Source of the DNA: Octopus vulgaris
Lineage: Eukaryota
Length of the DNA stretch: 64,000 nt
Direction: 5' to 3'
Assembly (NCBI GenBank): GCA_951406725.2
Contig: OX597815.1
Coordinates: forward strand, 185,194,001 to 185,258,000
Under the pieces are notes generated by a model that did not search any database, had not been told where the DNA came from, and saw nothing but the letters and a program-made list of their open reading frames with translations. Below are positions 6,111-56,121 of the stretch, in pieces. The position numbers and the translations under genes were made by a program. The stretch's first letter is position 1. Each line of letters begins with the position of its first letter.

Positions 6111-6240
6111 AAAAAAAAAAATAAATATATATATATATATATATAACAAGAAAAATGCCACTTATATTTGAACACTATACAAATATTCTTTCAAATAAAC
6201 TTTCCTTTTAATTTTTCTAAATTTAATTATTTAATTGTTA

Positions 6241-6276
6241 CAGTTGAATAAGTCACAATGACTGAAACCGGTACTG
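6241..6276 (+). ncRNA. Minimal type-I hammerhead-like motif (U3 variant)
   Basis: cag-TTGAATA-agtca caa tgact-GAAA-ccgg-TA-ctg: stem I cag/ctg, 5-bp stem II, palindromic ACCGGT stem III; core position 8 is T. Confidence 0.6.
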
Positions 6277-6623
6277 AAATGTTCTTTATAAAATTATTTT
6301 AGCATTTTCTATCCTGACTTGCTTTTTCATATATATATGGGGAGAGAGACAGAGAGAGAGAGAGAGAGAAGCAGAGAGACAAAAAGACATACAGAGACAG
6401 AGGGAGAAAGAGAGAATGAGTGAGAGAAAGAAACAATATGTACATATGGATGGATGGATAGATACACTATTGGTGCTTTAAGTTTCACGACTGAGTGGTC
6501 AGATTGCTGTAGTTCCGTATTTGCAAACGTGATAGCGAATTTCGAAACTGCTAATTGGTTAAAACCATAACTTACAAAGCATTCTCTAGATAACAAGTGA
6601 CTCGAAATGTAAAACCAAACCGA

Positions 6624-6723: not shown

Positions 6724-7560
<837 letters not shown>

Positions 7561-7571
7561 TATATAGAAGG

Positions 7572-7622
7572 AGCTTCTACAGGACTAGTACTGTTTCATT
7601 CAAGAGAAATCTTCAGGAAGCT
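7572..7622 (-). ncRNA. Type-I hammerhead ribozyme, family E
   Basis: Exact reverse complement of 13310-13360. Confidence 0.8.
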
Positions 7623-8054
7623 ATTTAACAAGAATTGTATTAGCATTTATACATTTAGAGGAGTGGTGGTGGGGGACTTTTTGGGGGTAGGCATAGCGCA
7701 AAATATCATACTTGGGGGAGTGGTCAAGGTAATAAAAAAATAAAAAAATAAAAAAATAAAAAATAAAAAAATAAAAAGATAAAATAAAAGAATAAAAATA
7801 AAAATAAAAAATATAAAAAATATAAAAAATATAAAAAATATAAAAAAATAAAAAATATAAAAAATATAAAAAATATATATAAAAAATATATATAAAAAAA
7901 TATATAAAAAAATATATATATAAAATATATATATAAAAAATATATATATAAAAAAAGGGGGGATAGAGTTATAGGTAAATAAGGAGATTCTCACTTATAC
8001 CTATACACACATGTATACGTATCTACACACACATACGCACATACACATATATCT

Positions 8055-8099
<45 letters not shown>

Positions 8100-8564
8100 C
8101 ATACCTACACATACACACATACATACATACAAATATACATATACATATATATATATATACAATCCAATACAGGCCCATTCCCTAATTTTAATTTTATTAT
8201 CTTCATTTATTACTTTTGTTATCTTTGATCGCTAAGGCTAAGAATCCTGGCAATAGCTGCTTGTCCATTTGTCTGTCTACTAGAAGGCAAGTACTCATTC
8301 CCGCACGCACACTCATTAGCACGTACATTCACCCATTCGTACACTCATACACATACACGTACGCACGCGTTATATTCATACATACAAACATCTACATACG
8401 TTCACGTATATACACATACGTACTCGTACCTACAGATTCGTGTCTACACTTTAGGAGGCTAGTCTATACATATACACCAATAAATATACATATATATATA
8501 TATATATATATACCCGCATATACATACACACACACACATATATACTCCTACATACAGATACATA

Positions 8565-8606
<42 letters not shown>

Positions 8607-8802
8607 TACATATATATATACATACATACACATACATACACATACACACATACACACACATACATACACATATATATACATACACAAACATATATACACA
8701 CACATATATATACATACACACATACACACATACATACGTATACATACCTACATACATCTATACATCCATACTTACATGCATTTATACGCATACACACACC
8801 CA

Positions 8803-8843
<41 letters not shown>

Positions 8844-9122
8844 TCACACATACATATACAAATCTACGCACACACATACATACATACACGTATACGCATA
8901 CACGCACATACACATATACATGCGTACCCATACACGTGCACACACGCACGCGCATCCATATAAATACACACACACACATATATATATACACGTGTGCAAG
9001 CATACATACATACTCATACGCGCACACATACTTACAAATACATATATGCACACACTTACACACATATATATACATACACATATACATGCATACATACATA
9101 TATTCATACATACACACACGCA

Positions 9123-9184
<62 letters not shown>

Positions 9185-9243
9185 TATACATACATAGACA
9201 TATATACACATACATACACATACACATACGTACACACACATAT

Positions 9244-9287
<44 letters not shown>

Positions 9288-9498
9288 GCATACATATATA
9301 CACATATACATACATATACATACACACACACATAAATATATACATATACACTGATACACATACCCATACATACACATGCATATACTTATATTACTACATA
9401 CTCACATATATAGACATATATACATATACACACATACATATATACATGTACATACACATACGCATGCATATATATATATATATACATACATATATATA

Positions 9499-9529
<31 letters not shown>

Positions 9530-9812
9530 ACATACACACACACACACACATACATATACACATATACATGTATACATACGCAAAAATGATACGCATATAT
9601 ACACATACACACACACAGACAGATGCATATACATACATATATATATATACAAACTACATATCTATATAAATACATACATGATACACATATACACACACAT
9701 ATATATACATTCATGCATATACATATACAAGTATACATACACAAACATACACACACACGCGCACACATACATATACACACACACACATATACAAATACAT
9801 ACATACACACAT

Positions 9813-9845
<33 letters not shown>

Positions 9846-9882
9846 CATACATGTACACATATACATATGTATATATATATCA

Positions 9883-10095
9883 ACAAGGGGGGTAAAGTTA
9901 ATTAGTTATTAATCAATTTCATCAAGTGTTCAGTATGTAAAGGGACCATTATTATTTTGAGTAAACAATGTTAGAGGGAAAAAAATTCTCTAAGTAGTGG
10001 AAGAGGCTAAAAAACTTTATTGGCTGCTATTTCTAGAAAGTTTAGTATGTGGCAAAGTAATTTATTTTATTTTCCTAAGCCCTAATTATATAATA
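9883..10095. mobile_element. Fragment of the 558-bp unit family with an internal inversion (mirrored at about 10880-11092)
   Basis: ggtaaagttaattagttattaatcaatttcatcaagtgttcagtatgtaaagggaccatt matches 36454-36511 directly; 10010-10085 matches 36543-36610 in reverse. Confidence 0.75.
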
Positions 10096-10251
10096 TTTTA
10101 TACATACATACACATACATAAGCACATACATTTACACATACATATGCATATACATATATACACATATACATACAAACACATATACACATATACACACACA
10201 CACACATACAAGCACATACATATATATATACATATATATACACATATATAT

Positions 10252-10282
<31 letters not shown>

Positions 10283-11128
10283 CATGCAAACATATATACA
10301 TATATATTTTTTTACATGCATACATACACACACACACACATAATACATGCGTATATTCCTACTGTACCCATGCATTTCTATACATATATACATACATACA
10401 TACGACACATATACAAGCGTGCACATATAATATGCGTGCACATATAATATGTGAAAGGTCTTAGGAGAAAAGGTAATCGGGGTGCTAGGGGAACAGCACC
10501 GATTACCTTTTCTCCTAAGACCTTTCACATATTATATGTGCACGCATATTATATGTGCACGCTTGTATATGTGTATCGTATGTATGTATGTATATATGTA
10601 TAGAAATGCATGGGTACAGTAGGAATATACGCATGTATTATGTGTGTGTGTGTGTATGTATGCATGTAAAAAAATATATATGTATATATGTTTGCATGTA
10701 TATATATATATATATATATGTGTATATATATGTGTATATATATGTATATATATATGTATGTGCTTGTATGTGTGTGTGTGTGTATATGTGTATATGTGTT
10801 TGTATGTATATGTGTATATATGTATATGCATATGTATGTGTAAATGTATGTGCTTATGTATGTGTATGTATGTATAAAATATTATATAATTAGGGCTTAG
10901 GAAAATAAAATAAATTACTTTGCCACATACTAAACTTTCTAGAAATAGCAGCCAATAAAGTTTTTTAGCCTCTTCCACTACTTAGAGAATTTTTTTCCCT
11001 CTAACATTGTTTACTCAAAATAATAATGGTCCCTTTACATACTGAACACTTGATGAAATTGATTAATAACTAATTAACTTTACCCCCCTTGTTGATATAT
11101 ATATACATATGTATATGTGTACATGTAT

Positions 11129-11166
<38 letters not shown>

Positions 11167-11723
11167 ATGTGTGTATGTATGTATTGGTATATGTGTGTGT
11201 GTATATGTATGTGTGCGCGTGTGTGTGTATGTTTGTGTATGTATACTTGTATATGTATATGCATGAATGTATATATATGTGTGTGTATATGTGTATCATG
11301 TATGTATTTATATAGATATGTAGTTTGTATATATATATGTATGTATATGCATCTGTCTGTGTGTGTGTATGTGTATATATGCGTATCATTTTTTGCGTAT
11401 GTATACATGTATATGTGTATATGTATGTGTGTGTGTGTGTGTGTGTGTGTATGTAGGTATGTATGTGTATATATATGTATGTATATATATATATATATGC
11501 ATGCGTATGTGTATGTACATGTATATATGTATGTGTGTATATGTATATATGTCTATATATGTGAGTATGTAGTAATATAAGTATATGCATGTGTATGTAT
11601 GGGTATGTGTATCAGTGTATATGTATATATTTATGTGTGTGTGTATGTATATGTATGTATATGTGTATATATGTATGCGTATATGTGTATATATATATAT
11701 ATGTATATATATATATGTGTATA

Positions 11724-11756
<33 letters not shown>

Positions 11757-11785
11757 ATGTGTATATATGTCTATGTATGTATATA

Positions 11786-11824
<39 letters not shown>

Positions 11825-12106
11825 GAGTGCGTGTGTGTATGTATGCATATATGTATGTATGCATGTATATGTGTATGTATATATATGTGTGTAAGTGTGT
11901 GCATATATGTATTTGTAAGTATGTGTGCGCGTATGAGTATGTATGTATGCTTGCACACGTGTATATATATATGTGTGTGTGTGTATTTATATGGATGCGC
12001 GTGCGTGTGTGCACGTGTATGGGTACGCATGTATATGTGTATGTGCGTGTATGCGTATACGTGTATGTATGTATGTGTGTGCGTAGATTTGTATATGTAT
12101 GTGTGA

Positions 12107-12143
<37 letters not shown>

Positions 12144-12333
12144 TATAGATGGGTGTGTGTATGCGTATAAATGCATGTAAGTATGGATGTATAGATGTAT
12201 GTAGGTATGTATACGTATGTATGTGTGTATGTGTGTATGTATATATATGTGTGTGTATATATGTGTGTGTATGTATATATGTGTATGTATGTGTGTGTAT
12301 GTGTGTATGTGTATGTATGTATGTATGTATATA

Positions 12334-12379
<46 letters not shown>

Positions 12380-12837
12380 TATGTATCTGTATGTAGGAGT
12401 ATATATGTGTGTGTGTGTATGTATATGCGGGTATATATATATATATATATATATGTATATTTATTGGTGTATATGTATAGACTAGCCTCCTAAAGTGTAG
12501 ACACGAATCTGTAGGTACGAGTACGTATGTGTATATACGTGAACGTATGTAGATGTTTGTATGTATGAATATAACGCGTGCGTACGTGTATGTGTATGAG
12601 TGTACGAATGGGTGAATGTACGTGCTAATGAGTGTGCGTGCGGGAATGAGTACTTGCCTTCTAGTAGACAGACAAATGGACAAGCAGCTATTGCCAGGAT
12701 TCTTAGCCTTAGCGATCAAAGATAACAAAAGTAATAAATGAAGATAATAAAATTAAAATTAGGAATGGGCCTGTATTGGATTGTATATATATATATGTAT
12801 ATGTATATTTGTATGTATGTATGTGTGTATGTGTAGG

Positions 12838-12894
<57 letters not shown>

Positions 12895-13309
12895 AGATAT
12901 ATGTGTATGTGCGTATGTGTGTGTAGATACGTATACATGTGTGTATAGGTATAAGTGAGAATCTCCTTATTTACCTATAACTCTATCCCCCTTTTTTTAT
13001 ATATATATTTTTATATATATATTTTATATATATATTTTTATATATATATATTTTTTATATATATTTTTTATATTTTTTATATTATTTTATATTTTTTATA
13101 TTTTTTATATTTTTTATATTTTTTATATTTTATTTTTTATTTTTATTTTTTTTTATTTTTTTTTTATTTTTTTATTTTTATTATTTTTTTTTTTTTTTAT
13201 TACCTTGACCACTCCCCCAAGTATGATATTTTGCGCTATGCCTACCCCCAAAAAGTCCCCCACCACCACTCCTCTAAATGTATAAATGCTAATACAATTC
13301 TTGTTAAAT

Positions 13310-13360
13310 AGCTTCCTGAAGATTTCTCTTGAATGAAACAGTACTAGTCCTGTAGAAGCT
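13310..13360 (+). ncRNA. Type-I hammerhead ribozyme, family E
   Basis: agcttc-CTGAAGA-t ttc tctt gaa t-GAAA-cag tactagtc ctg-TA-gaagct: 6-bp stem I, intact core, 4-bp stem III, predicted GUA cleavage after 13354. Confidence 0.82.
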
Positions 13361-13441
13361 CCTTCTATATAATAAATTAATTTTACTCTGCTATGTATTG
13401 AGTACCTTACTTACTGTGGTTAACCCCGAATCAACCCGGGA

Positions 13442-14588
<1,147 letters not shown>

Positions 14589-17549: not shown

Positions 17550-18700
17550 AGTGTAAGTTTACATCATTTATACGCATTCAGTTTTGTTACTAAGAGAACA
17601 GTAAACGAATCAATTACGACGTAAGTATTGTTTCCTTTTTTATATCTCTATTTGCGCTGAAGATGATAACAATCTGGCTTGTTTCAAAACTTGTTAGAAA
17701 CTGAACAAGAAAAGAATATTTTTCTTCTGTTCACATAAAGATTAATAGCTCATAGTTATTAATAAGCTGTTAAGATCATCTCTATAAATTTTCCATAGAA
17801 ATTACACCCAGCACTGATTTTGTTACGACGTTTAGAATCCGTGACGCCAGATGTAAACAAACAATTACGACATCGTGAATAAAACAGTGGATAATTGTCG
17901 TATATGCCATATTTCGAGAGTTTTTTCTCCTTCATCAGCACCAATCTAACACATTAATCATCCACCAACGCATTGCTGAAATAGCCACAACAAATAGCGG
18001 TGTAACGTTATTGGACATACCAATTTACATATTAAACACATTCCTGGACGTTTGTATGTAAATATTAATAACTTGTAATGACTTGTAGAGAAAAAGATAG
18101 AAGAGAGAGAAAACACGTCCGTTCTTTTAAACGTCCGTGCAGGAAAAGAAAGTTGGTCCCGTGAGGAAAAGAAAGATGGACGATGATCACGTGTGAGCAG
18201 CGTCAGAAAGATAAAGAGGGGGAGAAAGAGAGAGAAAGACAGATAGAAAACAGTGAAGGAGGGTGGGGAGACAAAGGGAATTAGAGAAAGATGGAGGAAG
18301 AAAACAGTATAGAAGATGGAGTGGCATCAAAAAGGCGAAGATACACTTACTTGGAAATGTATGCGTCGCGTTCAATTAAATAATGATAAATGATCTCGAA
18401 ACATGTATATTATTAATCCTGGTCGTGTTGATACATTGCTTTTCTCTTTGCCTTCGTAAAAAAGTATGTTTACAGTCATGGAGATTCTTATAGTAGTAGA
18501 GAATTTTTAACTCCTTTTTCTAATTTCGGTATGTGATGAAGCAGTTAGCTGAACCCTAATTATAATTATATGGATAATTTTAACTATAAAGGTTATTTTA
18601 ACGTACCGATCTAGTTGGTAAAATTGTTAATTAATTGATCAATTAATTAATTTAATTAATAAATTTTACCCTTCTATTATTAATTTAAGATATATATATA

Positions 18701-19308: not shown

Positions 19309-19455
19309 TAGATAGATAAGAAAGTTGGTTTGTGAAAGCACGTGGGTGAATATATAGAAAATAGTAAAGAGAGTGAAAAAACTACAGAAGGCTTAAATGT
19401 TAATAAATATATATATTTGCGTCAATATGTCTGAAGAATATTAGAAATTTTTTAA

Positions 19456-21611
19456 AAGAACAAAAGTGAACACATCCCACACAGAGGAAGAAATAAAGAT
19501 CTTGACGAATTCTGTAACCACATTGAGAACTTTCCCTACCATACTATACATAAACAGAAAGTTAACTCAAATTTTAACACTACACAATGGAAAGAACTGA
19601 TAGAACTTCAAAATGATGAGGATATAACCATTAAGGAAGCAGACCAGGGAAATGCAGTTGTAATAATGGATACATCATACTACAGAAATCTTGTAATTTC
19701 CTTGCTTGATGACGACCTACATTATGAAAAAATTACCAACTACACCCCACAAAAAATAATGAAAACTCTATCTTCACTAATTAAAACCCATGAAAAGGAA
19801 CTAACAACCAAAGAGATTGACTTCCTAACAAACTTTAAATGCAAACCTAGCCTTTTCTATGGTCTGCCAAAAATTCATAAAAGTCAAATTATAAATGAAA
19901 CCATTAAAAAATCCCCAAAGACATACATACACACACCTAACCCGGGGTACCTAAAACTACGACCCATTGTAGCTGGCCCAACCTGTGAAACACACAGACT
20001 AAGTCTACTTATGGACATCCTCCTGAAACCCTTCCTTAAACATATCGATAGCCATATCAGAGATGACTTAGATATGTTAAACCACCTTCCAAAAAAAGCC
20101 AAGGAAGAAACAATCCTGGTTTCATTTGATGTAGTTAACTTATATACCAGTATACCTCATAATTATGGACTGGAGGCAATACAGTTCTGGTTAGACCAAT
20201 TTCCGGAAGAAATACCAAAAAGGATCAGTAAAGAATTCATTACTAAATCAATTGAATTCATCCTACACAATAACCACTTCATGTTTGACAATACATTTTA
20301 CCGTCAAAAATCCGGAATTGCTATGGGTACAAGGGCAGCACCAGTCATTGCTAACTTAACAATGGGTTACATGGAAATAATCATTTACCAGGAATCTTTA
20401 TCAATCTTTGGAAACCCCCTCTCTCAATACATAAAAGAGAATTGGAAACGATTCTTAGACGATTGTTTTATTCTCTGGAATGAAAACACAGATAAACTCC
20501 TAAAATTTAAAAACCTATTGAACAGCATAAACCCAAATATACAGTTCACAATGGAATACAACCAAAAGGAGCTCCCGTTCTTGGATATACTAATTAAAAA
20601 AATTAACCTTAAAATAGAAACAGACATTTTTTACAAAGCCACAGACGCCAAACAATACCTTCTTTTAATTCATGCCACCCAAGACACACTAAAACAAACA
20701 TCCCCTTCAACCTTGCAAGAAGGATATGCACAATAGTGTCAGAACAAAATACCAGGAACTTTAGACTGCAAGAACTCAAAAACACCCTAATTGACAGACA
20801 TTACCCAGCTCAACTCATAGAGGATGGGATCAGACGTGCAACAGAAATCAACATAGAAACTTTAAGAAAAGTTCAACACAACAACACACCTTCCCCGAAA
20901 ATACTACCTTACATATCTACATACAACCCCAGAAACAAAGAAGCCTTCATCATCATCACCCAGAATTTACCAATACTTCATAAAGACCCCAAATTAAAGG
21001 AAATTCTAAACATACACCAAATCATTAAAAGCTACAAACAGCCTAAATCACTTAAAAACATTCTCACAAAGGCAAAATTGTCTTCTGAAATTACGGATGC
21101 AAAAGTTAAAAAATGTGGTAGATCGAACTGTGCAACATGTCCTAACCTGCTAGAAGGATCAGAATTCCTCTTTAAAGAGGGACAGAAATTCAAGATCAAA
21201 TCTAACTTTACTTGTGCCTCTGAAAACATAATTTATGTCATAAAATGCTCGGGCTGCCACCAAGACTACGTGGGTTCCACGGGACTATCACTCAGACGTA
21301 GATGCATACTGCATTGACAACAGATTGCATTCCCAGAATATAGAATGATACCTTTTGGTGAGCACATTGAGAAATGCGCAAAGCAACTACTACCACAATT
21401 TTTAATCTTTCCATTTTACCAATGTGCTTTCGGATCATCAACACAAATTAGACTAAACAAGGAAACATTCTTCATTGAAAAGTACAAGCCCAGACTCAAC
21501 CATCCGAACATACTGATACAGAGAAATTCACACCAAGGGAAAGGAAAAAAATTTTTAAGCGATTATCTCCCTTACATCAGAAGAAATCACTCACTACCTC
21601 CCCTTATTTAG
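19456..21611 (+). pseudogene. Penelope-like reverse transcriptase / GIY-YIG endonuclease (one frameshift near 20665, one stop at 21315-21317)
   Basis: IKEADQGNAVVIMD, FYGLPKIHK, LRPIV, SFDVVNLYTSIP, QKSGIAMGT, WKRFLDDCF, FLDI; after the shift NSCHPRHTK; Cys linker KCGRSNCATC; NIIYVIKCSGCHQDYVGST; C-terminal ETFFIEKYKPRLN. Confidence 0.95.
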
Positions 21612-21661
21612 AACTCTCCTGAACATAAACATAACGATTACTCTATTCAACATAACGTCGC

Positions 21662-21700
21662 AAGAAATTTGAAAAGCTACACGCGAAACCGGTCTTTCTT
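21662..21700 (+). ncRNA. Minimal hammerhead motif in the Penelope 3' pLTR, U3:A8 variant
   Basis: aagaaat-TTGAAAA-gc tacac gc-GAAA-ccgg-TC-tttctt, at the position expected for a PLE HHR. Confidence 0.6.
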
Positions 21701-21826
21701 TTAAATTATGTCATTATAAGAGAAAAAAATTTTTTTTTTCAAATTTTCTAATATTCTTCAGACATATTGACGCAAATATATATATTTTTTAACATTTAAG
21801 CCTTCTGTAGTTTTTTCACTCTTTAC

Positions 21827-21878
<52 letters not shown>

Positions 21879-22247: not shown

Positions 22248-22306
<59 letters not shown>

Positions 22307-22315
<9 letters not shown>

Positions 22316-22504
22316 GAAGGAGCTTCTACAGGACTAGAACTGTTTCATTCAGAGAAATCATCAGGAAGCTTCCTGATGATTTCTCTTGAATGAAACAGTT
22401 CTAGTCAATCCTGTAAAAACTCCTTCTATATAATAAATTAATTTTACTCTGCTATGTATTGAGTACCTTATTTACTGTGGTTAACCCCGAATCAACCCGG
22501 GACC

Positions 22505-22507
<3 letters not shown>
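22307..22507. mobile_element. Mini fold-back element, family E: two head-to-head HHRs (22321-22370 on -, 22367-22421 on +) plus tail
   Basis: Centre ggaagcttcc; CTGATGA core on both strands; tail aattttactctgctatgtattgagtacc...aacccgggacctac nearly identical to 13380-13446. Confidence 0.85.
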
Positions 22508-22539
<32 letters not shown>

Positions 22540-35686: not shown

Positions 35687-35913
35687 GAAGGCGGCGAGCT
35701 GGCAGAAACGTTAGCACGCCGGGCAAAATACGTAGCTTTATTTCGTCTGCCGTTACGTTCTGAGTTCAAATTCCGCTGAGGTCGACTTTGCCTTTCATCC
35801 TTTCGGGGCGGTAAATAAAGAACCAGTTACGCACTGGGGTCGATGTAATCGACTTAATCCGTATGTCTGTCCTTGTTTGTCCCCTCTATGTTTAGCCCCT
35901 TGTGGACAATAAA
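35687..35913 (+). mobile_element. SINE family 2
   Basis: Full family 2 sequence. Confidence 0.9.
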
Positions 35914-35944
35914 GACATATATATAAATATATATATATATATAC

Positions 35945-35976
<32 letters not shown>

Positions 35977-36394
35977 TTGTGTGTGTGTGTGTGTGTGCGT
36001 ATGTGTGTGAGTATTTGTGTGTCTGTGTTTGTCCCCCCAATATCGCTTGAGAACCGATGCCGGTGTGTTTACGTCCCCGTAACTTAGCGGTTCGGCAAAA
36101 GAGACCGATATGATAAGTACCAGGTTTACGAAGGATAAGTCCTGGGGTCGATTTGCTCGACTAAAGGCGGTGCTCCAGAATGGCCACAGTCACATGACTG
36201 AAACAAGTAAAAGCGTGAAAGAGTAAAAAGAGAATATGACTTAAAATACGTTTATTAAGAAAATCTTAAGGGATAGCTTAGCATTGATGTTTCACAATGC
36301 AAGCGAGGAAGAAACCTGACCATTGCAACTCATGAGAAACGTTATAGCCTTCACTCGTTGAGCTATTAAAACTGGTTCATACATATACATATTA

Positions 36395-36441
<47 letters not shown>

Positions 36442-36723
36442 TTCAACAATTGAGGGTAAAATTAATTAATTAATCAATTTCACCAAGTATTCAGTATGCA
36501 AAGGGACCATTTAAGGCGAATTCAAATTATTACATTATATAAAAGGGCTTAGTAAAATAAATTACTTTGCCGCATACTGAACTCATTAGAAATAGCAGCT
36601 AAAAAAACTTTTTTAAAGCTATTTCTAATACTTAAAGAAAATCTCTCTCGTAAAGTGTTTGCTCAATTCAACTCACGAAAGTATGAGGGTAGAAACATTA
36701 AAAAATCAAATGCAAAGGTTATT

Positions 36724-36775
36724 TGAGAACGTACGTTTCAAGATTAGTCAAAAAGACATTTCTATCATCAGCTCA
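36724..36775 (-). ncRNA. Type-I hammerhead, family F, copy 1
   Basis: Reverse complement of 37625-37676. Confidence 0.78.
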
Positions 36776-37281
36776 GAACTCCCTGGTTTGGATTTGAAAA
36801 CACTGAAAGTAGGAGCATACCTTTTCGGCTTCCCATCGTCTCCGAAGATCTACTTGAAACTAACAGTGCCAGCAAATTCGAACATGCAAGCGAAGAATTT
36901 CTGCTCTCCCCCTTCCACCAGCGTGGGTTAAAATCAGCAAACAACATGCTTTTTTTCGGTAAAATCCGAGGCATTAAATAGAGAGATATGAATTATAATT
37001 TCAACAATTGAGGGTAAAATTAATTAATTAATCAATTTCACCAAGTATTCAGTATGCAAAGGGACCATTTAAGGCGAATTCAAATTATTACATTATATAA
37101 AAGGGCTTAGTAAAATAAATTACTTTGCCGCATACTGAACTCATTAGAAATAGCAGCTAAAAAAACTTTTTTAAAACTATTTCCAATACTTAAAGAAAAT
37201 CTCTCTCGTAAAGTGTTTGCTCAATTCAACTCACGAAAGTATGAGGGTAGAAACATTAAAAAATCAAATGCAAAGGTTATT

Positions 37282-37333
37282 TGAGAACGTACGTTTCAAG
37301 ATTAGTCAAAAAGACATTTCTATCATCAGCTCA
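37282..37333 (-). ncRNA. Type-I hammerhead, family F, copy 2
   Basis: Same sequence as copy 1, 558 bp away. Confidence 0.78.
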
Positions 37334-37624
37334 GAACTCCCTGGTTTGGTGAATACTTGGTGAAATTGATTAATTAATTAATTTTACCCTCAATTGTTGA
37401 AATTATAATTCATATCTCTCTATTTAATGCCTCGGATTTTACCGAAAAAAAGCATGTTGTTTGCTGATTTTAACCCACGCTGGTGGAAGGGGAGAGCAGA
37501 AATTCTTCGCTTGCATGTTCGAATTTGCTGGCACTGTTAGTTTCGAGTAGATCTTCGGAGACGATGGGAAGCCGAAAAGGTATGCTCCTACTTTCAGTGT
37601 TTTCAAATCCAAACCAGGGAGTTC

Positions 37625-37676
37625 TGAGCTGATGATAGAAATGTCTTTTTGACTAATCTTGAAACGTACGTTCTCA
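37625..37676 (+). ncRNA. Type-I hammerhead, family F, copy 3
   Basis: tgag-CTGATGA-t aga aat gtc ttttt gac taa tct t-GAAA-cgtacg-TT-ctca; palindromic AACGTACGTT stem III. Confidence 0.8.
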
Positions 37677-37956
37677 AATAACCTTTGCATTTGATTTTTT
37701 AATGTTTCTACCCTCATACTTTCGTGAGTTGAATTGAGCAAACACTTTACGAGAGATTTTCTTTAAGTATTGGAAATAGTTTTAAAAAAGTTTTTTTAGC
37801 TGCTATTTCTAATGAGTTCAGTATGCGGCAAAGTAATTTATTTTACTAAGCCCTTTTATATAATGTAATAATTTGAATTCGCCTTAAATGGTCCCTTTGC
37901 ATACTGAATACTTGGTGAAATTGATTAATTAATTAATTTTACCCTCAATTGTTGAA

Positions 37957-38004
<48 letters not shown>

Positions 38005-38165
38005 AATATGTATATGTATGAACCAGTTTTAATAGCTCAACGAGTGAAGGCTATAACGTTTCTCATGAGTTGCAATGGTCAGGTTTCTTCCTCGCTTGCA
38101 TTGTGAAACATCAATGCTAAGCTATCCCTTAAGATTTTCTTAATAAACGTATTTTAAGTCATATT

Positions 38166-38689
<524 letters not shown>

Positions 38690-45804: not shown

Positions 45805-47182
<1,378 letters not shown>

Positions 47183-49403: not shown

Positions 49404-49577
49404 CATCGAAAAATACCTTAGGAATGAGAACCCAGGTTCGAAATTTCCCCCAAGACACCTGATGAAGCCTGGATGGTACATCACCGAAACGTTTTTAAGA
49501 ATAATCAAGATGAGGACAAATTTCCGTCAAATGTAGATAATGTACATAATTCCTCATCTCTCAAATATAGAACTGTA
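49040..49577. mobile_element. tRNA-head + (AAT)n + hammerhead element, family A (49294-49577, +), with an inverted partial copy (49040-49190, -)
   Basis: A box tagcgtagtgg, B box gagttcgattcc; acac-CTGATGA...GAAACGTT at 49455-49493; inverted arms aattttagggcttataaatctaa / ttagatttataagccctaaaatt. Confidence 0.8.
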
Positions 49578-54623: not shown

Positions 54624-54859
54624 ATAATAAGTATCTGAACGAGATGTAAACAGTAACTGCTCGACAACATAAAGTATACTAGCCATCTTAATATGGCTAA
54701 CCACTAAGGGTGGGTGTTACTGTAGCTTTTAGCCCCAGGAGATCATCGTCTCCAGCCGGCTTTAGGCACAGCCAGCTGGAGACGATGATCTCCTGGGGCT
54801 AAAAGCTACAGTAACACCCACCCTTAGTGGTTAGCCATATTGAGATGGCTAGTATACTT
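54624..54859. mobile_element. TSD-flanked insertion consisting mostly of a 190-bp near-perfect hairpin
   Basis: Arms about 54670-54761 and 54770-54861; 14-bp direct repeat tacatatacaagtg at 54610-54623 and 54860-54873. Confidence 0.85.
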
Positions 54860-55725
54860 TACATATACAAGTGGTATACCTAATAATTACAAAAATGAAA
54901 TCTGTAATGAATTGCGACTATGTATTATGTAAATATGCATGAATGAATGTATATGCGTACATATGTGTATATGTACATATCTTTGTATGTGTGTGTACGT
55001 ATGCACGTACGTGCGTGTATCTATATATATATATGCGTGTCCGAGCATGAGTATGTATATATGTATATGTACATGTAAGTTCATCAACTTAATGACCGGT
55101 GAATTCTTGAAGGTCAGCCAAGGACAATGTCAATTTTAAGCGACCATGAAGAATAAATTAGCAGAACAAAACAACAGAATGCCACACCCTTTTAATATGA
55201 ATTCCAAAACTTACCATCCATAACATAGCCACTCTTCCACTGCATCTAGAGCGGTCTCGTCAACAGATTTTCAACCATAGCACATTTTTTGATACGCTGA
55301 GTGGTTAGTACTACCTCGCAAGCCACGACAGACAGAAAAGGGTGCTCTAGCAGCCGTGAATTTGAATTTACAGAACACAGAAGAAAGAAATATTTATACA
55401 CCACCTGAGGAAACACAACATTTCATAATGAGTGGAAGCGGTTACATAAACAAATGACTGCGAACCTGGAGAACTACGTTGCGTGGAAACAATTGTAGTG
55501 ATTACAAATATATGTTCGTCTAGCTCCAACTTGTTCAATTATCCATTGACACACGACAGATGACCAAACACAAAACTTGGAAGTACGAATAATACTACTA
55601 CTGGATAGCACCGGATGAGATCTGAGAGTGGATCAGCTTTAAATTGTACTCTAATACGTTCTTAACAGAATATAGCTTAACTAAGGCGGCGAGGTGTGTC
55701 TATGTGTGTGTGTGTATGTGTGTGT

Positions 55726-55770
<45 letters not shown>

Positions 55771-55950
55771 ACCACACAAACATGATTTTTATTGAACTCA
55801 AAATACTTATTGTATTCTCTTTCTTGAATACTTTCATGTAAACTATTTTTAACATTTTCTTATCATGATCAAAAAATGTATAACTCTATTTTAATACTTT
55901 CGTTAAACCATTTTTAACACAACAAAGCTTATACAAAAACCTTACATTTT

Positions 55951-55992
55951 ACTTTTGATAAACTTTTTCTAAAAAAGTAAAACCGGTCAAGT
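55951..55992 (+). ncRNA. Minimal hammerhead-like motif, U3:A8 variant with G12A
   Basis: actt-TTGATAA-acttttt cta aaaaagt-AAAA-ccgg-TC-aagt. Confidence 0.6.
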
Positions 55993-56121
55993 CAATAGAC
56001 ATCTCTAAGTGACCTTTGCATTTTCAAACCTTCTTTCATATATATAAATAAATATATATATATATATACATACATACATATACATACACACATATATATA
56101 GAGATATATACATACATACAT

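Follow-up and report, generated by a model that had tools for sequence, protein, structure and literature searches.

A 558-bp hammerhead-bearing unit in Octopus vulgaris: a probable non-autonomous derivative of a Penelope-like element terminal repeat

The window analysed here, a 64-kb stretch of Octopus vulgaris DNA that is A+T-rich, microsatellite-laden and interrupted by two 100-N gaps, contains three identical type I hammerhead motifs, each inside a copy of a 558-bp unit. The locus raises the question whether this unit is a retrozyme that releases circular RNA, the stump of a coding Penelope-like element (PLE), or a PLE-dependent family without proteins of its own, and how two of its copies came to lie head to head with a third.

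Layout of the locus and build of its hammerheads

The copies and their surroundings are listed in Table 1. The left arm, with the ribozyme on the minus strand, reads B, A, (TA)n(GA)n and about 530 bp of host flank, and the right arm, with the ribozyme on the plus strand, reads a 53-bp remnant, C, (TA)n(GA)n and the same host flank. These inverted arms (35909-37051 and 37350-38507; 97% identity, microsatellites included) enclose a 298-bp single-copy spacer, and outside the microsatellites they differ by 5 substitutions, all of them transitions, in 961 bp and by two small indels; the flank copies alone differ by 2 substitutions in 403 bp. Unit B is 99.4% identical to A (2 substitutions) and C is 98.9% identical to A (3 substitutions and 2 small indels), with B's alleles present in C at two sites. 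The left flank ends inside a (TA)n that terminates a different repeat, and the two-part order of the dispersed repeat on the right recurs at 6 other places in the window. Since the right flank runs on in this recurrent order and the left one stops in a foreign (TA)n, the right arm is likely the original site and the left arm the copy.

Table 1. Features of the locus and the decayed PLE of the same window (window positions)
Feature	Position	Strand	Details
Decayed Neptune/Nematis-type PLE	19342-21832		RT and GIY-YIG at 19456-21510; RT PF00078 E 4e-8; frameshifted
Left host-flank copy	35909-36440		(TA)n, (TG)n, a SINE-like dispersed repeat, a part found once in the window, (TC)n(TA)n
Unit A, full copy, 558 bp	36441-36998	-	3' end (ribozyme sense) at 36441, adjoins (TA)n; blastn self-comparison
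Hairpin within the unit, 45 nt	36585-36629		arms of 12 bp, perfect in A; B and C have two G.U wobbles on the ribozyme strand
Hammerhead of unit A	36724-36775	-	predicted cut after 36728; CUGAUGA starts at 36771
Predicted cut-to-cut monomer, 558 nt (hypothetical circle)	36728-37285	-	34% G+C
Unit B, 5'-truncated, 351 bp	36999-37349	-	head to tail with A; starts 20 nt before the ribozyme core
Hammerhead of unit B	37282-37333	-	predicted cut after 37286; CUGAUGA starts at 37329
3' remnant of the unit, 53 bp	37350-37402	+	opens the right arm; matches unit positions 1-53 at 100%
Unit C, full copy, 555 bp	37403-37957	+	orientation opposite to that of A and B; 3' end (37957) adjoins (TA)n
Hammerhead of unit C	37625-37676	+	no other on the right arm; cut predicted after 37672; CUGAUGA starts at 37629
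Right host-flank copy, inverted	37958-38526		continues past (CA)n(TA)n into the 2nd half of a dispersed two-part repeat

The head-to-head inversion junction lies at 37349/37350, and there the left arm closes with four bases that can pair with unit positions 43-46, a microhomology of 4 nt located 11 nt from the beginning of the right arm; a second place where they can pair is 185. In the two arms and an older relative, a small sample from this window, the 3' ends are fixed (both arms at unit base 1, the relative at 9880 at base 3; 287 nt from the cut site) and the 5' ends variable (351 and 53), with no end at the cleavage site. Neither a target-site duplication nor a one-sided tail was seen at the locus. 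An earlier note on this DNA had described a tandem 558-bp unit extending over 36441-37957. The unit stands, and the tandem comes to 558 + 351 bp, or 1.63 units, short of the at least two units asked of a retrozyme and not reported by TRF (settings of Li et al., period up to 1000); the extent has to be widened to 35909-38507, where the inverted repeat takes in about 530 bp of host flank.

The hammerheads were scanned for with a type I descriptor (core, stem II of at least 3 bp, palindromic stem III, H, and stem I of at least 3 bp) that was written after the motif had been seen; over the 64 kb its matches are exactly these three, while 100 shuffles gave 0.01 on average and 1 at most. All three possess the core CUGANGA, GAAA and UH together with stems I-III, which is the definition of a type I hammerhead, and the two predicted cuts on the minus strand (37286 and 36728) are 558 nt apart. 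Helix I has 4 bp; helix II has 3+3 bp, is broken by a 3x3 loop and is closed by U.U (U10.1.U11.1); stem III is the 8-nt palindrome ACGUACGU, which makes 2 bp and a 4-nt loop alone and 8 bp as a dimer; and the cleavage triplet is GUU. GUU cleaves slower than GUC. The G10.1-C11.1 pair of both the canonical and the minimal PLE consensus is absent, as are the helices of canonical retrozymes (helix I 6 bp, helix II 4 bp). Non-GUC triplets have lower activity (PMC2238771), a cleavage rate for GUU being found in the accessible parts of neither PMC1636495 nor PMC2238771, and hammerheads with U10.1-U11.1 exist in nature (PMC3088659). The earlier description of three identical canonical hammerheads is thus right in identity, positions, strands and 558-nt spacing, and wrong in the word canonical (U10.1.U11.1, 4-bp helix I, GUU).

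The Rfam hammerhead models gave no match at the gathering threshold in the 64-kb window and none at E<=10 in 36400-38000; CRISPR-DR50 and DUF805b, the only Rfam matches at E<=10, were judged to be chance. With a model built from 8 outside PLE hammerheads with 6-nt palindromes, the three motifs scored 15.6 bits (E 0.12) and took ranks 8-10 of 20. The exact ribozyme pattern had 0 matches in metagenome contigs.

Several other structures of related kind are present in the window. Hammerhead-like motifs of other families, intact or decayed, lie at 49459 (+), 63095 (-), 57535 (+), 59884 (+), 17938 (-), 26686 (-), 6236-6281 (+) and 55947-55996 (+). A 7.5-kb palindrome at 6726-14283, between two assembly gaps and with a near-perfect hairpin centre near 10485, carries a second hammerhead family at both outer ends (7570-7624 on the minus and 13308-13362 on the plus strand), pointing into long (TA)n, and a 69-nt tail on the right arm only; the 3 non-repetitive segments compared between its arms show no difference, so that it is either very young or an artefact. 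The same second family forms a small head-to-head insertion in (TA)n at 22304-22508; each of its arms begins at the edge of stem I of the ribozyme, and a tail is found on only one of them. The older relative of the unit's 3' end (78-86%) occurs at 9880-10094 and 10881-11095 as a short inverted structure, whose arms at 9880-10094 have their ends some 90 nt from each other. As its inner junction also occurs in contigs of X2 and X13, two of the public sequencing runs described below, this derivative appears to have spread independently. A+T-rich palindromic ends like the 3' end of the unit, each followed by (TA)n, lie at 18600-18700 and 45930-46030 and are possibly an end signal common to several families. 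At 54670-54861 there is a 192-bp near-perfect palindrome with a tiny loop.

Folding, coding content and relatives among Penelope-like elements

The circular monomer folds at -142.9 kcal/mol compared with -113.3 +/- 6.8 kcal/mol for 60 shuffles (z -4.4), and the hammerhead is not formed in this lowest fold. The local active hammerhead fold has -2.7 kcal/mol, its 76-nt piece being no better than shuffles. In the 909-nt tandem the active folds lie 11.5 (dimer) and 14.1 kcal/mol (two monomers) above the minimum in a model that excludes tertiary contacts, the dimer being better by 2.6 kcal/mol, and the palindromic stems III of the two motifs can pair over 8 bp (computed -9.8 kcal/mol), which agrees with the earlier statement that two minimal hammerheads can pair in this way. 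The ribozyme strand folds 22.7 kcal/mol better than its complement, mostly a matter of composition, since shuffles give 15.1 +/- 5.8 kcal/mol. PLE-type hammerheads have low activity in vitro (Cervera and de la Pena 2014, PMC4209133), and among frog retrozyme dimers cleavage was seen in only 1 of 9 tested (Li et al. 2026, 10.64898/2026.07.22.740005). Our ribozyme alone is predicted to have weak activity, and cleavage would require that two palindromic stems III pair, perhaps with the help of protein. That the family yields a detectable circle of about 558 nt is less likely than not, and this locus itself is very unlikely to be a notable source of circles.

The earlier statement that the locus has no credible ORF was confirmed. 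One candidate is a 100-codon frame (36629-36931, plus strand, antisense to the ribozyme) with no Pfam match near the cut-off, whose best match in the Atlas is peptidase M17 at 0.90 with 157 shared features. The frame has a faint likeness to motifs C-D of the PLE RT and a best tblastn E of 0.006 among 98 PLE proteins. It was considered as an RT relic and rejected: it scores 4.3 bits against a PLE profile (2 of 300 shuffles score as high, as do 0 of 95 other segments of the window) and lacks the catalytic aspartates, and the likeness is probably chance. An ORF with RT and GIY-YIG was not found in the unit, and the 98 PLE proteins gave no convincing match on the ribozyme strand (best tblastn E 0.037). 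A scan of the locus for bacterial promoters and terminators stayed below chance.

The window does contain a decayed PLE (Table 1). An inverted terminal repeat lies upstream of it, a degenerate remnant resembling a hammerhead is found near 21665-21700, and its two domains are separated by a CX4CxxC zinc-finger linker, which is a mark of Neptune/Nematis (PMC8557442). The named relatives of a retrotransposon protein in the window are mostly molluscan, including one Octopus bimaculoides record. With a profile of the clade of this PLE we gathered 97 outside PLE loci, in which the descriptor found 35 motifs in 30 loci (0-1 in 20 shuffles); GUU is the commonest triplet (17 of the 35 matches, some loci sharing a contig or a family). 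The U.U-closed stem II together with a 6-nt palindrome was found in 4 of the 35, all in loci 43-48% identical to the query and among the closest RT relatives. Downstream of the ORF, which was read in 17 loci, 8 have a hammerhead-like motif 83-444 nt after the ORF (5 of these 8 with U...U), and the ribozyme core sits 227 nt from the 5' end of the unit. The stems of the PLE hammerheads covary at 7 of 9 pairs in 8 sequences chosen by the descriptor. Because GUU and the U.U build recur in related PLE loci, the odd features of our ribozyme are features of that PLE group. At the DNA level the unit and the window's PLE share nothing but an A+T-rich patch, and the 97 outside loci gave no match to the unit, so an autonomous partner was not found there. 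Loci L081-L097, which hold PLE ORFs of the animal type with hammerheads, come from contigs assigned to bacterial genome bins, likely through contamination by host DNA, and L088-L090 are tandem copies on one contig.

The unit family in public contigs

We compared the contigs of 4 of 24 listed runs, labelled as two organisms, with one unit length (36792-37420); two of the four, X13 and X18, are RNA only by guess. The 558-bp unit is a very abundant family: 4057 contigs were placed on it in X1 and 718 in X2, with summed depths of 6e4-1.5e6 and 1e4-5e5, respectively (contig depth is not copy number and cannot rank parts of the unit, and contigs cannot show circles, ends or strand). The head-to-tail joint is bridged by 1 of 32 listed records (X18, 36907-37056, at least 31 letters on each side, 6 differences), and 4 further listed records cross it by 18-22 letters; contigs also run across the arbitrary ends of the query, and none of the 24 listed loose ends departs from the unit at the joint. 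Among 40 listed variant rows a single one (37312, loop II) falls in the ribozyme. No link of the unit to a PLE ORF was seen among the listed contig records, and a minority of copies may be ORF-linked.

The inversion junction was spanned by no listed contig record, and the T of unit A at 36855 has zero depth in all four runs; for these two reasons the exact locus is regarded as not seen outside the assembly. A, B and C differ from the family majority at about ten sites. Short-read polishing was dismissed as the cause of the differences between the arms, since at these sites rare alleles persist in each of the three copies. In X18, two of the six listed loose ends, one contig each, carry 10 A-to-G among 10 changes and 6 A-to-G among 9 (scored by eye on the strand opposite the ribozyme, with no matched DNA), a hint of ADAR editing of double-stranded transcripts.

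Origin of the unit and of its inverted arm

In our best explanation the unit, a high-copy repeat that encodes no protein, is probably non-autonomous and descended from a PLE terminal repeat of the Neptune/Nematis type, and it would be copied in trans by PLE enzymes. Its layout matches the published pattern of PLE insertions, in which a partial tandem has next to it an inverted copy truncated at the 5' end, with (TA)n as a frequent target (Craig et al. 2021, PMC8557442; Arkhipova et al. 2013, PMC3846280). The likeness to the canonical EN+ PLE insertions in these papers extends to 3' ends that are fixed while the 5' ends vary, to a 5' junction with microhomology and to a hammerhead in the terminal repeat; the differences are that our locus has no ORF, a unit of 558 bp, no one-sided tail or target duplication, and 530 bp of host flank on both arms. 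Metazoan non-LTR retrozymes (Cervera and de la Pena 2020, PMC7229834; Li et al. 2026, 10.64898/2026.07.22.740005) resemble the unit in being non-coding and head to tail with one type I hammerhead each, in low G+C, in a well-folded predicted monomer and in the presence of PLEs in the same genome, whereas our unit has a PLE-type ribozyme, makes 1.63 units and exceeds the invertebrate circles of 170-400 nt. The PLE hammerheads with a small palindromic helix III (PMC4209133) share the short helix I, the long helix II and the palindromic stem III, and GUU appears in the supplementary alignment of that paper for Lottia and Caenorhabditis, but in our motif U10.1.U11.1 replaces the conserved G-C, the palindrome has 8 nt and helix II contains a 3x3 loop. 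The non-autonomous Chlamys PLEs, e.g., MRC1 (PMC8557442), are likewise ORF-less derivatives with pseudo-LTRs (pLTRs) and head-to-tail insertions; they differ in belonging to a green alga, to a clade described there as lacking canonical hammerheads, and in having a known autonomous partner, none being identified for our unit. A search of the literature, with subscription papers and repeat databases (which may list the family) mostly outside its scope, found no paper on the unit family or on cephalopod hammerheads, nor, in the same scope, on an inverted duplication of host flank made by a PLE. We treat the unit as a new family that works like a non-autonomous PLE and shows the layout of one.

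We infer the dependence on PLE enzymes, the priming and the order of events. A transcript of tandem units would serve as the template of reverse transcription, either uncut or religated into a circle, as argued by unit B, which runs through the cut site, and by the fixed 3' ends 287 nt away from it. The PLE reverse transcriptase and endonuclease would act in trans on this RNA, and copying from a nick in (TA)n, with a fixed start point in the unit and variable stops, would account for partial tandems whose 3' ends are constant and whose 5' ends vary. The enzyme of an anole PLE cuts A+T-rich DNA, extends both strands and begins copying at fixed sites inside the RNA; it can do without cleavage by the ribozyme, which in that element required protein (PMC11167929); capture of host DNA between pLTRs is also known (PMC3846280). 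For the inverted arm, the likely source would be the right arm, from which a read-through RNA (351 nt, a unit and 530 nt of flank ending in (UA)n) would likely have been primed at the (TA)n just upstream; the cDNA end would then have been joined back into the source tandem via the 4-nt microhomology, with removal of the intervening DNA, and the outcome would be the 2.6-kb head-to-head repeat with its spacer. On balance we favour this origin of the flank-carrying arm over DNA fold-back or template switching and over an artefact.

An active non-LTR retrozyme, cleaving itself at GUU every 558 nt and supplying abundant circles as the template for 1.63 turns of cDNA, is an unlikely reading of the unit. 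Two identical motifs with palindromic stem III do lie 558 nt apart, within the 51-972 bp range of Li et al. (10.64898/2026.07.22.740005), but TRF does not report a tandem of this length, and the invertebrate retrozyme circles that have been demonstrated are smaller (PMC7229834). The circle folds better than shuffles and the dimer better than two monomers, but the active fold stays 11.5 kcal/mol above the minimum and the advantage of the ribozyme strand is mostly compositional; natural U10.1-U11.1 hammerheads are known (PMC3088659), but the ribozyme is of the PLE type, with low activity in vitro (PMC4209133) and protein dependence in the anole element (PMC11167929). The 5' end of B passes through the cut site, the family is closed head to tail, its ribozyme is conserved among the listed variants and the unit is present in two runs guessed to be RNA, in a kind of data that can show neither circles nor ends nor strand. 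The retrozyme proposed in the earlier note thus keeps its monomer geometry (in the left arm) and its head-to-tail closure and loses its canonical ribozyme, which is of the PLE terminal-repeat type; with fewer than two units and no canonical ribozyme, we do not class the unit as a retrozyme. The retrozyme and PLE options largely merge, since animal retrozymes are derived from PLE terminal repeats by Li et al. 2026. The bare PLE pLTR tandem, which the note had offered as its alternative, would make the unit the 3' end of a coding autonomous PLE that is never mobile alone, and this we consider quite improbable. The position of the core resembles that in the 3' UTR of related PLEs, and truncation at the 5' end is the rule among PLE insertions (Li et al. 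2026, 10.64898/2026.07.22.740005; PMC8557442), but upstream of a stump ORF sequence is expected, whereas what precedes A, and likewise C, is the 3' end of a further unit, diverged contigs of other copies cross the same head-to-tail joint, and the PLE proteins have no convincing match on the ribozyme strand. The locus does have the PLE insertion layout of that alternative.

Two further readings concern the inverted arm. It is doubtful that arm and flank were made at the DNA level, by a break with fold-back or by a switch of template among self-complementary stretches of (TA)n, with no part played by reverse transcription and with the element as a bystander; this reading applies to the duplication only and is compatible with the assignment to a PLE family. 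The 298-bp single-copy spacer and the microhomology at the junction are as in fold-back duplications (PMC3907307), and the outer end in (TA)n, 530 bp beyond the end of the unit, is explained equally by fold-back or template switching. Outward head-to-head arms running into (TA)n recur, however, at the hammerhead elements 22304-22508, 7566-13447 and 9880-10094, one of which has a one-sided tail, a mark of PLEs (PMC3846280). An assembly artefact (a fold-back read or two joined haplotypes) is improbable. It would agree with the lack of a listed contig across the junction, with the allele of A that is missing from four runs and with the second giant palindrome between two gaps, the arms of which are identical in the segments tested; but all five substitutions are transitions and C carries alleles of B and not of A, which argues against a fold-back read, the microsatellites differ in length, and the junction is asymmetric with microhomology.

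The unit, as a probable non-autonomous PLE derivative, adds one non-autonomous PLE- or retrozyme-like family in a group for which no hammerhead family was found in the literature, and the U.U-closed build of its hammerhead appears to mark one PLE clade. The locus is a compact test case for the cutting and the circles of PLE-type hammerheads in vivo and for the formation of head-to-head PLE insertions. The inverted arm with its flank matters if such arms are common, because the elements would then be a local source of inverted duplications of host DNA. A wider scenario, improbable as we judge it, is a very high-copy family of 558-nt hammerhead circles for which borrowed PLE enzymes copy read-through host DNA at (TA)n into palindromes of kilobase size, with double-stranded RNA and ADAR hyper-editing as the consequence. 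If it were true, the palindromes would be the one of 2.6 kb here and the one of 7.5 kb at the second hammerhead family 25 kb away, and a ribozyme-bearing parasite would be a running source of inverted duplications and of editing substrates in a cephalopod-like genome.
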